The notes under the pieces were generated by a model that ran no database searches, had not been told where the DNA came from, and worked only from the letters and a program-made list of their open reading frames with translations. Below are positions 51,381 through 52,948 of a stretch of 64,000 bases of DNA, piece by piece. This DNA is from Candidatus Micrarchaeota archaeon. Its GTDB lineage: Archaea; Micrarchaeota; Micrarchaeia; Anstonellales; Anstonellaceae. Every line of letters starts with the position of its first letter. Positions within the stretch are counted from its first letter, which is position 1. The stretch lies in assembly GCA_026396415.1 (NCBI GenBank), contig JAPLWX010000050.1:15783-79782 (forward strand). Reading direction: 5' to 3'. A program made the translations under genes and the position numbers.

Positions 51381-52948
51381 CTCCAGTTGATCCTGCTGGA
51401 GGACACTGCTATCAGAGTACGCCTAAGCCATGCAAATCTGCCCGTCGGCTTCGACGGACGGTGTACGGCTCAGTAACAAGTAGTCAATCTGCCCTAAGGA
51501 CGGGAGCAACCTCGGGAAACTGAGGTCAATTCCCGATGCCCCATCTATGCTGGAATGCTTGATGGGGAAAAAGCGCGGCGAATCGTAGCCGTTGCGCCTT
51601 AGGATGAGACTGCTCCTGATTAGGTAGTTGGTGAGGTAACGGCTCACCAAGCCGATAATCAGTAGGGGCAATGGGAGTTGGCGCCCCGAGAAGGGCACTG
51701 AGACAAGGGCCCTAGTCCTACGGGATGCAGCAGGCGCGAAACCTTTACAATGCGCGAAAGCGTGATAAGGGAACTCTGAGTGGCAGCCGGCTTTTAGCCG
51801 ACTGTCTTTTGGCGAACCTAAACCGTTCGCAGAATAAGTTCTGGGTAAGACCAGTGCCAGCCGCCATGTGCATTTGCATAATGCGCACGGTACGCGGTAA
51901 TACTGGCAGAACGAGTGGTGCCCACGAATATTGGGTCTAAAGAGACCGTAGCTGGCCTGTTAAGTCCACTGTGAAATCTTGGGGCTCAACCTCAAGGCGT
52001 GCAGTGGATACTGGCAGGCTTGAGAGCGGGGGAGGTCAGGGGTACTTACGGGGTATGAGTAAAATCAGTTGATCCTGTAAGGACCACCAGTGGCGAAGGC
52101 GCCTGACCAAAACGCGTCTGACAGTGAGGGTCGAAGGCTAGGAGAACGAATCGGATTAGATACCCGAGTAGCCCTAGCAGTAAATTATGCAGACTGTGGT
52201 GTTACCGTGGCTTCGGGCCACGGTAGTGCTGTAGCGTAGGTGTTAAGTCTGCCACCTGGGGAGTACGGCCGCAAGGTTGAAACTTAAAGGAATTGGCGGG
52301 GGAGCACCACAAGGGGTGGATGCTGCGGTTCAATTGGATACAACGCCAGGAATATTACCGTGGGCGACGGCAGGATGAAGGCCAGACTAAAGATCTTGCC
52401 TAACGAGCCGAGAGGTGCTGCATGGCCATCGTCAGCTCGTGGTGCGATATCGCGGACGCGCAAGCGTCTGATATCGTGTCTGCGATGCACAAACTGTCTC
52501 GTTAAGTCGAGTAACGAGCGAGACCCTCGCGTACAGTTGCGAATTTCCCCTCCGGGGGAGATGCACCCTGTACGGACTGCCCGTGTTAAATGGGAGGAAG
52601 GAGAGGGCGACGGTAGGTCAGTATGGCCTGAATCTCACGGGCTACACGTGGCATACAATGGATGAGACAATGGGCTGCGACCCCGAAAGGGGAAGCCAAT
52701 CTCACAAACTCATCCCAAGTTCGGATTGGGGGCTGAAACTCGCCCCCATGAAGCTGGAATCCCTAGTAATCGCTTGTCATCATCGAGCGGTGAATACGTC
52801 CCCGCTCCTTGCACACACCGCCCGTCAAGTCACCCAAGCGAGTTTTTAGTGAGGCTGCGCTTCTTGGCGCTGTCGAACTAGAGATTCGTGAGGGGGGCTA
52901 AGTCGTAACAAGGTATCCGTAGGGGAACCTGCGGATAGATCACCTCCA
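51381..52948 (+). rRNA. rrs: 16S (SSU) ribosomal RNA, complete, archaeal type, with a 28-nt insertion at 51866-51893
   Basis: The 5' end is ctccagttgatcctgctggagg. Archaeal signatures include aaacttaaaggaattggcgggggagcac. The 3' end is ggatagatcacctcc. Conserved blocks such as ggattagataccc and tgcatggc are present. No 23S or tRNA follows. Confidence 0.9.

Follow-up and report, generated by a model that had tools for sequence, protein, structure and literature searches.

The 64,000-nucleotide (nt) stretch of DNA analysed here (contig JAPLWX010000050.1 of assembly GCA_026396415.1, positions 15,783 to 79,782 of the forward strand; hereafter the window, in whose numbering all positions are given) is very probably part of a Micrarchaeota (DPANN) genome with a single, stand-alone 16S rRNA gene that is interrupted by two non-coding bulge-helix-bulge (BHB) mini-introns and spliced. 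Intron 1, a 28-nt element on the + strand (51866-51893), is located in the 530 loop of helix 18, between C526 and G527 in Escherichia coli numbering. Intron 2, a 45-nt element on the same strand (52448-52492), interrupts helix 36 in its GNRA tetraloop, following E. coli A1080. The insert in the 530 loop had been noticed in a preceding sequence-only reading of this DNA, from which intron 2 was absent.

The boundaries of the gene and the positions of the inserts were determined with Infernal and the archaeal small-subunit (SSU) rRNA model of Rfam, RF01959. The match extended from 51380 to 52948 on the + strand (1569 nt, 1413.9 bits) and covered model positions 1-1478 of 1478. The gene had thus been recognised correctly in the sequence-only reading, with its start, 51381, off by one base. 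Without both introns the exons (51380-51865, 51894-52447 and 52493-52948, + strand) comprise 1496 nt. In the 530 loop, the Infernal alignment had 29 nt between GCCAGCCGC and GCGGUAAUAC at a place with only 1 nt in the model and read GUGCCAGCCGC-[29 nt]-GCGGUAAUAC. The earlier claim that 28 extra bases at 51866-51893 split the 515 block was thereby corroborated, and the alignment to the curated model located them inside the conserved block 515-533 and not in a variable region.

The base pairs of the BHB motif of intron 1 (51855-51899, + strand) were written out for the intron, AUGUGCAUUUGCAUAAUGCGCACGGUAC (letters ATGTGCATTTGCATAATGCGCACGGTAC at 51866-51893), and its flanks. The outer helix is formed by U51855-C51858 with G51896-A51899 (4 base pairs, bp), beside an A51859.C51895 mismatch. 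The 4-bp central helix pairs exonic GCCG (51860-63) with intronic CGGU (51888-91), and the 3-nt bulges are CC|A (51864-66) and AC|G (51892-94). The inner helix of 8 bp, UGUGCAUU/AAUGCGCA (51867-74 with 51880-87), is closed by the loop UGCAU (51875-79) and replaces the hairpin proposed earlier, which consisted of an outer gtgc...gcac and an inner gca..tgc stem. The insert has the 3-4-3 arrangement of a BHB intron, in which a 4-bp helix lies between 3-nt bulges of opposite strands. If each bulge is cut between its second and third base, exactly 51866-51893 is removed and GTGCCAGCCGCCGCGGTAA is restored, and the exons joined in silico matched the conserved primers 515F and 519R with 0 mismatches. 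The coincidence of the BHB cuts with the junction that was fixed independently by the covariance-model alignment is the key evidence for the BHB reading. Of 2,000,000 shuffled versions of the insert, 644 had a paired central helix together with an inner stem in register that was 4 bp or longer, and in only 12 did this stem reach 8 bp or more. The BHB fold of intron 1 is not a product of chance.

To determine the distribution of the site-526 intron, one genome per species from 185,579 species was scanned with the pattern GTGCCAGCMGCC-N12-42-GCGGTAATAC, resulting in 54 loci, 44 archaeal and 10 bacterial. According to the record titles, the archaeal loci belonged to Micrarchaeota, Micrarchaeia or Anstonellaceae (28), Aenigmarchaeota (6), Nanoarchaeota (1), Woesearchaeota (1) and unclassified archaea (8). 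All 44 archaeal inserts were 26-40 nt long, started with A, ended with CGG(U/C)A-N and had the central helix paired at 4 of 4 positions. The 10 bacterial matches were set aside, as none of them forms a BHB motif; in four of these loci (L019, L014, L048, L030) the split-515F pattern has flanks of the bacterial type (GCAGCC) and the inserts comprise 12-37 nt.

Altogether, 42 distinct site-526 intron sequences were obtained, and the exon flanks and intron ends were arranged in a gapless alignment (A1) of 41 distinct rows. The proportion of paired BHB cells in A1 was 89.5%, compared with 32-48.5% when the 3' partners were slid by 1-3 columns. The covariation score was 0.314 against 0.114 ± 0.014 in shuffled alignments, none of which reached 0.314 (0/500). 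All eight pairs of the inner helix vary on both sides, i.e. the motif is kept by compensatory change across homologues. The exon parts of A1 are invariant because they were fixed by the search and are uninformative either way. Judging from these alignments, the site-526 intron is a conserved family in DPANN archaea. The suggestion of the sequence-only reading that the insert is a structured micro-intron in helix 18, not random damage, is borne out by the canonical BHB, by cuts that fall on the exon junction and by the compensatory changes in the 42 versions.

In the loop of helix 36, Infernal aligned 47 nt of the gene at a place with 2 nt in the model. In a BLAST alignment with the relative L052, the match stopped at 52447 and restarted at 52492, with one shared A. 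L052 and 16 other loci lack exactly the 45 nt of intron 2 and read GGTGCGAACTGTC, from which it follows that the extra 45 nt correspond to 52448-52492. The numbering of E. coli A1080 was derived from the position of the 1100r primer and the known 1093 site. In the BHB motif of intron 2 (52441-52494, + strand), GUGC (52442-45) pairs with GCAC (52487-90) in the central helix, the bulges are GA|U (52446-48) and AA|A (52491-93), and the inner helix has 12 bp (52449-60 with 52475-86); the 3-4-3 arrangement is therefore present, in the relaxed HBh' form. Two junctions are possible by sequence, and the BHB selects GGU-GCGA-ACU, which corresponds to a normal 3-bp helix 36 with its GNRA loop.

Base pairs were compared among 17 distinct versions of intron 2 from the close clade of the window and from a metagenome collection. 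All 17 have a BHB in register: the central helix has 4 bp, the bulges have 3 nt each, the inner stem varies from 5 to 14 bp, and the spliced product is identical, GGTGCGAACTGTC, which is the sequence of the intron-free relatives. Compensatory evidence was limited to a few double changes, from AU to GC and from CG to UA. The minimum-energy fold around intron 2 mispairs bases of helix 35. A permissive BHB scan of the whole gene resulted in 255 chance matches and missed intron 2, because an outer helix of at least 2 bp was demanded. In L036, a distant Micrarchaeote with 75% 16S identity, an unrelated BHB intron of 48 nt was detected one base upstream of site 1080.

Evidence for the removal of the introns was obtained from the metagenome collection, which was scanned with clade-specific flanks permitting 0-30 nt at site 526. 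Of the 28 contigs detected, 25 had an intron of 27-30 nt and 3 (L069, L073, L091) had none; the latter came from one consecutive sample series (Ga0068940, Ga0068967 and Ga0068944). The contig L069 (Ga0068940_1011056, 1-200) is circularly permuted: the last 29 nt of 16S are followed by 143 nt and then by the 5' end of 16S. Its spacer, ...GUCUUCG-GGUU-UA|A-CGAAGA..., forms a hairpin with a 7-nt loop, and the junction is exactly the one predicted for L029 if the BHB of its processing stem is cut at both bulges and the ends are ligated, ...GUCUUCGGGUUUA|ACGAGGA.... As such a junction is the signature of circular pre-16S rRNA, L069 derives from RNA. It has no intron at 526 and is apparently, as read from its permuted order, a circular pre-16S intermediate of a Micrarchaeote from which the 526 intron was already gone. 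L073 differed from the intron-bearing L086 at 26 mismatched positions, and the alignment was gapped at just two places, by 30 and 48 nt, where L086 has its two introns. L069 and L073 were continuous across both junctions. The intron-free contigs thus provide good but indirect support for splicing and ligation in vivo.

A leader-trailer pairing with a BHB was found also around the gene of the window. In the best candidate, the 5' leader strand (51279-51304, + strand) consists of an outer helix (51279-87), the central AACU (51289-92), the bulge AC|A (51293-95) and an inner helix (51297-304). The 3' trailer strand (53060-53085, + strand) consists of the inner helix (53060-67), the central AGUU (53069-72), the bulge AA|G (53073-75) and the outer helix (53077-85). 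Beyond single mismatches the outer and inner helices comprise 9 and 8 bp, respectively, a total of 17 compared with 12 in the next-best candidate. The same architecture, built from different sequences, was present in L017, L024, L016, L025, L029, L034 and L041. The retention of a flanking BHB stem in relatives with different sequences suggests that the EndA pathway is used on the pre-16S of the window and speaks for splicing of the introns. The circular pre-16S junction predicted for the window is ...CUCUUUCCCAGUUAA|AAGGAAAGAG.... A TATA-box-like element, TATTTAAA (51101-51108, + strand), is located about 270 nt upstream of 16S and is conserved, the aligned leaders of L010, L041 and L027 reading TATATAAA or TTTATATA; it is probably the promoter of the stand-alone pre-16S transcript. 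In the 16S leader of about 250 nt, several hairpins (51130-51290) upstream of the BHB stem are kept across relatives, e.g. GTCCCCTGGCGATGCGGGGAC and GATGCC-N4-GGCAT.

From these observations we infer the enzymes, the order of the steps and splicing in the window organism itself. The 16S would be transcribed alone, probably from the TATA-like box at about 51101, and its leader and trailer would pair into the processing stem with a BHB motif, while introns 1 (28 nt, after C526) and 2 (45 nt, after A1080) would each fold a BHB of their own. The tRNA-splicing endonuclease (EndA) would cut after the second base of each 3-nt bulge. An RtcB-type ligase would then join the exons and also circularise the pre-16S ahead of final trimming. 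The expected product is a normal 16S of 1496 nt with the decoding-centre loop GUGCCAGCCGCCGCGGUAA intact.

Several results weigh against removal of the inserts by BHB splicing. For the region 51853-51906, the energy of the BHB fold was determined to be -15.8 kcal/mol compared with -19.4 kcal/mol for the minimum-energy fold, and the stability of the hairpin was no better than that of shuffled sequences (z = -0.81). As the minimum-energy fold differs from the BHB, register and comparative evidence were relied on instead of stability. In intron 1 the outer helix has the A.C mismatch next to the bulge; intron 2 has just one pair, G52441-C52494, as its outer helix and is therefore of the relaxed HBh' type. 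Neither EndA nor RtcB was found by Pfam among the approximately 50 open reading frames (ORFs) of the window, so the enzymes are assumed to be encoded elsewhere in the genome. The RNA-derived sequence comes from clade relatives only and none from the window organism. Internal proof of RNA origin is confined to L069 among the three intron-free contigs; L069 was compared via its nearest genomic relative, L029, which is about 94% identical in aligned bases, and L091 looks chimeric.

It is very unlikely that the inserts are cut out by EndA or another RNase and the 16S persists as three non-covalent fragments, as is the case with intervening sequences in 23S of bacteria. In favour of it, other organisms are known to have rRNA in fragments, and the evidence for ligation is not from the window genome. 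Against this stand L069 and L073, which are unbroken across both junctions, the circular junction of L069, which reveals a ligase active on EndA products in the clade, and the description of archaeal BHB rRNA introns as RtcB-ligated (PMC4496867).

The sequence-only reading had allowed also for a structured expansion, the less likely reading in view of the present results: that mature 16S retains both inserts (28 and 45 nt) as extra hairpins of the 530 loop and helix 36 peculiar to the lineage is highly improbable. Both inserts are indeed compact hairpins within loops, helix 36 is surface-exposed enough for a conceivable extension, and the RNA evidence comes from relatives. An expansion hairpin, however, has no need of conserved 3-nt bulges and a 4-bp intron-exon helix in splicing register. 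Both the length and the sequence of the 530 loop are conserved universally, and as the loop is part of the decoding centre, 28 retained bases are expected to be harmful. Expansion segments are located in variable regions and are present in mature rRNA; the inserts are in invariant loops, and contigs of the same clade, one of them provably RNA-derived, are precisely without them.

An assembly or binning error, or a decaying pseudogene, is extremely improbable. Metagenome-assembled rRNA genes are generally error-prone, and a lack of read support had been named in the sequence-only reading as what would point to an artefact. The Logan assemblies of SRR20698650 and ERR15302204, two unrelated run series, resulted instead in contigs 99.9-100% identical to the window. 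These end within the conserved 907-926 region of 16S, and the independent assemblies carry intron 1 with its flanks exactly in L061 and L062 and intron 2 with its flanks exactly in L055 and L057. In addition, members of the intron family occur in another 44 genomes and in 25 metagenome-collection contigs. A dead gene is at odds with the score of 1413.9 bits, the intactness of every helix and the compensatory changes at the gene ends. The chance that the inserts are self-splicing group I or II introns, or mobile elements with a homing endonuclease, is close to negligible. Group I introns are indeed known from rRNA genes of Micrarchaeota (PMC6125680) and some relatives have insertions of 0.6-0.9 kb at other 16S sites, but 28 and 45 nt are far too short for a ribozyme core, which takes a few hundred nt and is detectable by covariance models, or for an ORF. 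No Rfam match besides SSU was obtained at E ≤ 0.05, and neither insert has such a core.

The consequences for amplification were determined by matching primers in silico to the gene and to the spliced sequence. The 515F/519R region is the most used "universal" primer site. As 515F is taken here to be E. coli 515-533, the insert falls after primer base 12, between C526 and G527, and the 3' third of each 515/519 primer is displaced on the gene. The mismatches of 515F and 515F-Y (5), Arch519F (4) and 519R (5) on the gene all decreased to 0 after in-silico splicing, in line with the earlier expectation that standard amplicon surveys would probably miss this organism. The numbers for the other primers were the same on the gene and after splicing: 3 with Arch21F, 2 with Arch958R, 1 with 806R, 806RB and 1492R, and 0 with Arch915R, 926R and 1392R. 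Since the intron splits 515F (between bases 12 and 13), Arch519F and 519R, DNA amplicon surveys at this site should fail on the carrier lineages, which offers a structural reason, beyond point mismatches, for the under-counting of Micrarchaeota and Aenigmarchaeota. Surveys of complementary DNA should detect the carriers if splicing occurs. Such short inserts need to be excised by rRNA callers and taxonomic pipelines.

Introns of this kind are known from other archaea. All archaeal splicing endonucleases recognise a 4-bp helix between two 3-nt bulges (PMC7714728, PMC3239211). BHB introns of 16S, including non-coding hairpins shorter than 50 nt, were described in Thermoproteales, Desulfurococcales and Aigarchaeota at 13 loci: 374, 548, 722, 781, 803, 901, 908, 919, 978, 1093, 1205, 1213 and 1391 (Jay & Inskeep 2015, PMC4496867). 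Similarly to these introns, for which cleavage by the tRNA-splicing endonuclease and joining by RtcB are presumed, the introns of the window are non-coding BHB hairpins in the most conserved parts of 16S and interrupt "universal" primer sites. In contrast, 526 and 1080 are not among the 13 loci, and the hosts, which are thermophilic TACK archaea in the published cases, are here DPANN archaea, mostly of the non-acidophilic Micrarchaeota type, with the 526 intron spanning several DPANN phyla. A large 16S insertion at E. coli 1093 is known in ARMAN-2, Mia14 and ARM-1 (PMC8784108, PMC5498576); in ARM-1 it comprises 522 bp and encodes a hypothetical protein, and its splicing is uncertain (PMC8784108), and for Mia14 introns are mentioned without detail (PMC5498576). 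That insertion is found in the same phylum and gene, 13 nt from intron 2. Unlike intron 2, it is located in the loop of helix 37 and is protein-coding in ARM-1, and the 16S of the window has no insertion at 1093.

The 3-4-3 motif of both introns is shared with the BHB introns of archaeal tRNAs (PMC3239211, PMC3488258, PMC12397907). The EndA of the Micrarchaeote Ca. Micrarchaeum acidiphilum ARMAN-2, an epsilon-2 enzyme, cuts strict hBHBh' and relaxed BHB motifs in vitro (PMC3239211). This specificity would cover the near-strict intron 1 and the relaxed intron 2; the substrates of the ARMAN-2 enzyme were pre-tRNAs, not rRNA. BHB processing stems and circular pre-16S and pre-23S intermediates were reported from Euryarchaeota and TACK archaea (PMC7714728; bioRxiv 10.64898/2026.03.23.713588). 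The present case resembles them in its leader-trailer BHB and in the circularisation of pre-16S exactly at the predicted junction (L069 compared with L029), and differs in the DPANN lineage, the unlinked 16S and the presence of two internal BHB introns besides. Nawrocki et al. 2018 (PMC6125680) reported group I introns, sometimes beside BHB introns, from rRNA genes of DPANN archaea, and insertion sequences are known from those of bacteria of the Candidate Phyla Radiation (PMC11270868). The hosts are likewise ultrasmall, with reduced genomes and rRNA rich in intervening sequences that defeat primers. Those elements, however, are ribozyme-based or endonuclease-encoding and hundreds of bases long, whereas the pair in the window consists of minimal protein-spliced introns.

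In the searchable literature, which is incomplete and so no proof of novelty, no description was found of the 526 or 1080 mini-introns or their spread across DPANN; the same incomplete literature held none of a circular pre-16S or BHB processing stem in DPANN. With the 526 and 1080 introns, a known kind of element is extended to new loci and lineages; the kind itself is not new. Two loci and several DPANN lineages are added to the catalogue of archaeal rRNA BHB introns, together with sequence-level evidence for a circular pre-16S intermediate in a DPANN lineage, and the pre-16S described here would need the splicing endonuclease at three separate motifs. A non-coding intron of the decoding centre that is conserved across phyla makes intron persistence, loss and possible function directly testable. 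We consider it a rather unlikely, though conceivable, explanation that the 526 intron is ancient and mostly vertically inherited in several DPANN phyla (Micrarchaeota, Aenigmarchaeota, Nanoarchaeota/Woesearchaeota) and has been kept as an assembly checkpoint, such that no decoding can take place before EndA and RtcB have acted. The checkpoint role in subunit maturation is speculation. If true, the tRNA-splicing machinery would be an obligatory three-site factor of ribosome biogenesis in reduced genomes and the 526 intron a shared molecular marker of DPANN.

The gene was found to be isolated from other rRNA and tRNA genes. In the 64-kb window no Rfam family besides SSU was matched at gathering score and E ≤ 0.05, neither 23S nor 5S was detected in the Rfam scan, and ARAGORN found 0 tRNA genes. 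The sequence-only reading had stated that neither 23S nor a spacer tRNA follows 16S and that the gene is unlinked from 23S; both statements held, the latter for 51 kb upstream and 11 kb downstream. As 16S is accompanied in the window by neither 23S nor 5S nor a spacer tRNA in its own orientation, the rRNA genes are of the unlinked, non-operonic type. Downstream, a gene of 336 amino acids (53279-54289, - strand) encodes a regulator with tandem AsnC-type helix-turn-helix (HTH) domains (Pfam HTH_AsnC-type, 4.2e-22, and HTH_24, 9.6e-23, two stretches each). It is convergent with 16S and marks the end of the rRNA unit. Its distance, given earlier as about 330 bp, was determined to be 331 nt; the gene ends there, on the opposite strand, and does not start there as had been claimed. 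Upstream, Pfam identified a tRNase Z-like protein and an Asp/Asn-tRNA synthetase, beside a protein of 347 amino acids without family, the stop codon of which overlaps the TATA-like box at 51101-51108. The end of the upstream gene at the TATA-like box and the convergent gene downstream indicate that 16S is transcribed as a unit of its own. Among the other relatives compared, most have no 23S in the locus examined. In three Micrarchaeota relatives (L029:215-5976, L023:1-5047, L021:1-6120), 16S and 23S are neighbours in head-to-head, divergent orientation, 1-3 kb apart; this is a third arrangement beside the operon and the fully unlinked genes.

The end sequences quoted in the sequence-only reading were correct on re-reading, and its remark that both gene ends deviate from the usual primer targets agrees with the 3 mismatches of Arch21F and the single mismatch of 1492R. 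At the 5' end, the odd bases belong to helix 1, where a G-C pair is changed to A-U with both partners replaced. At the 3' end they belong to helix 45, where pairs are changed to U-A on both sides, so that the ATAG close to the 3' end and the T of the 1492R site form opposite sides of a single helix. As far as can be read from these pairings, the deviations at 51382-51399 and 52910-52940, which affect the sites of Arch21F and 1492R and the 3' terminus, are compensatory swaps in helices 1 and 45, with no independent drift. At about 51575-51598 (model position about 194), a variable-region hairpin is longer by about 20 nt than in the Rfam model, which looks like an ordinary length difference of a variable region and not an intron.

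The closest 16S was that of L027 (Ca. Micrarchaeia archaeon SO_2016_LW1_44), 98.2% identical over the 1427 nt available, and the flanks of this locus are syntenic with about 79-84% identity. The next-closest sequences were L010 (95.9%), L041 (95.4%) and L017 (93.4%). The genes of the window are typically archaeal and include, according to Pfam, RadA, PurP-like DUF1246/DUF1297, CDP-archaeol synthase, an aIF5B-like GTPase and PheRS alpha. Up to four more 16S insertions of 45 nt to about 0.9 kb were observed in the close relatives L033, L007, L026, L003, L031, L021, L087 and L093. They occur at conserved sites equivalent to window positions ~52152-52162, ~52292, ~52616, ~52782-52790 and ~52903, some of which are close to 781 and 1391 in the published list. 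When L033, L007, L026, L003, L031 and L021 were scanned, no group I model was matched at gathering score.

Two further features were observed elsewhere in the window. The region 28050-29850 is an island of low guanine-cytosine content, 37-48% compared with 55-60% around it, with a LemA-family gene (28896-29447), an ORF of 118 amino acids without family and small ORFs on both strands at about 28210-28895; it may have been acquired horizontally. The S-adenosylhomocysteine hydrolase ORF (20875-22881) comprises 668 amino acids as called with the Pfam domain starting from residue 240, referring either to a miscalled start or to an unusual N-terminal extension.

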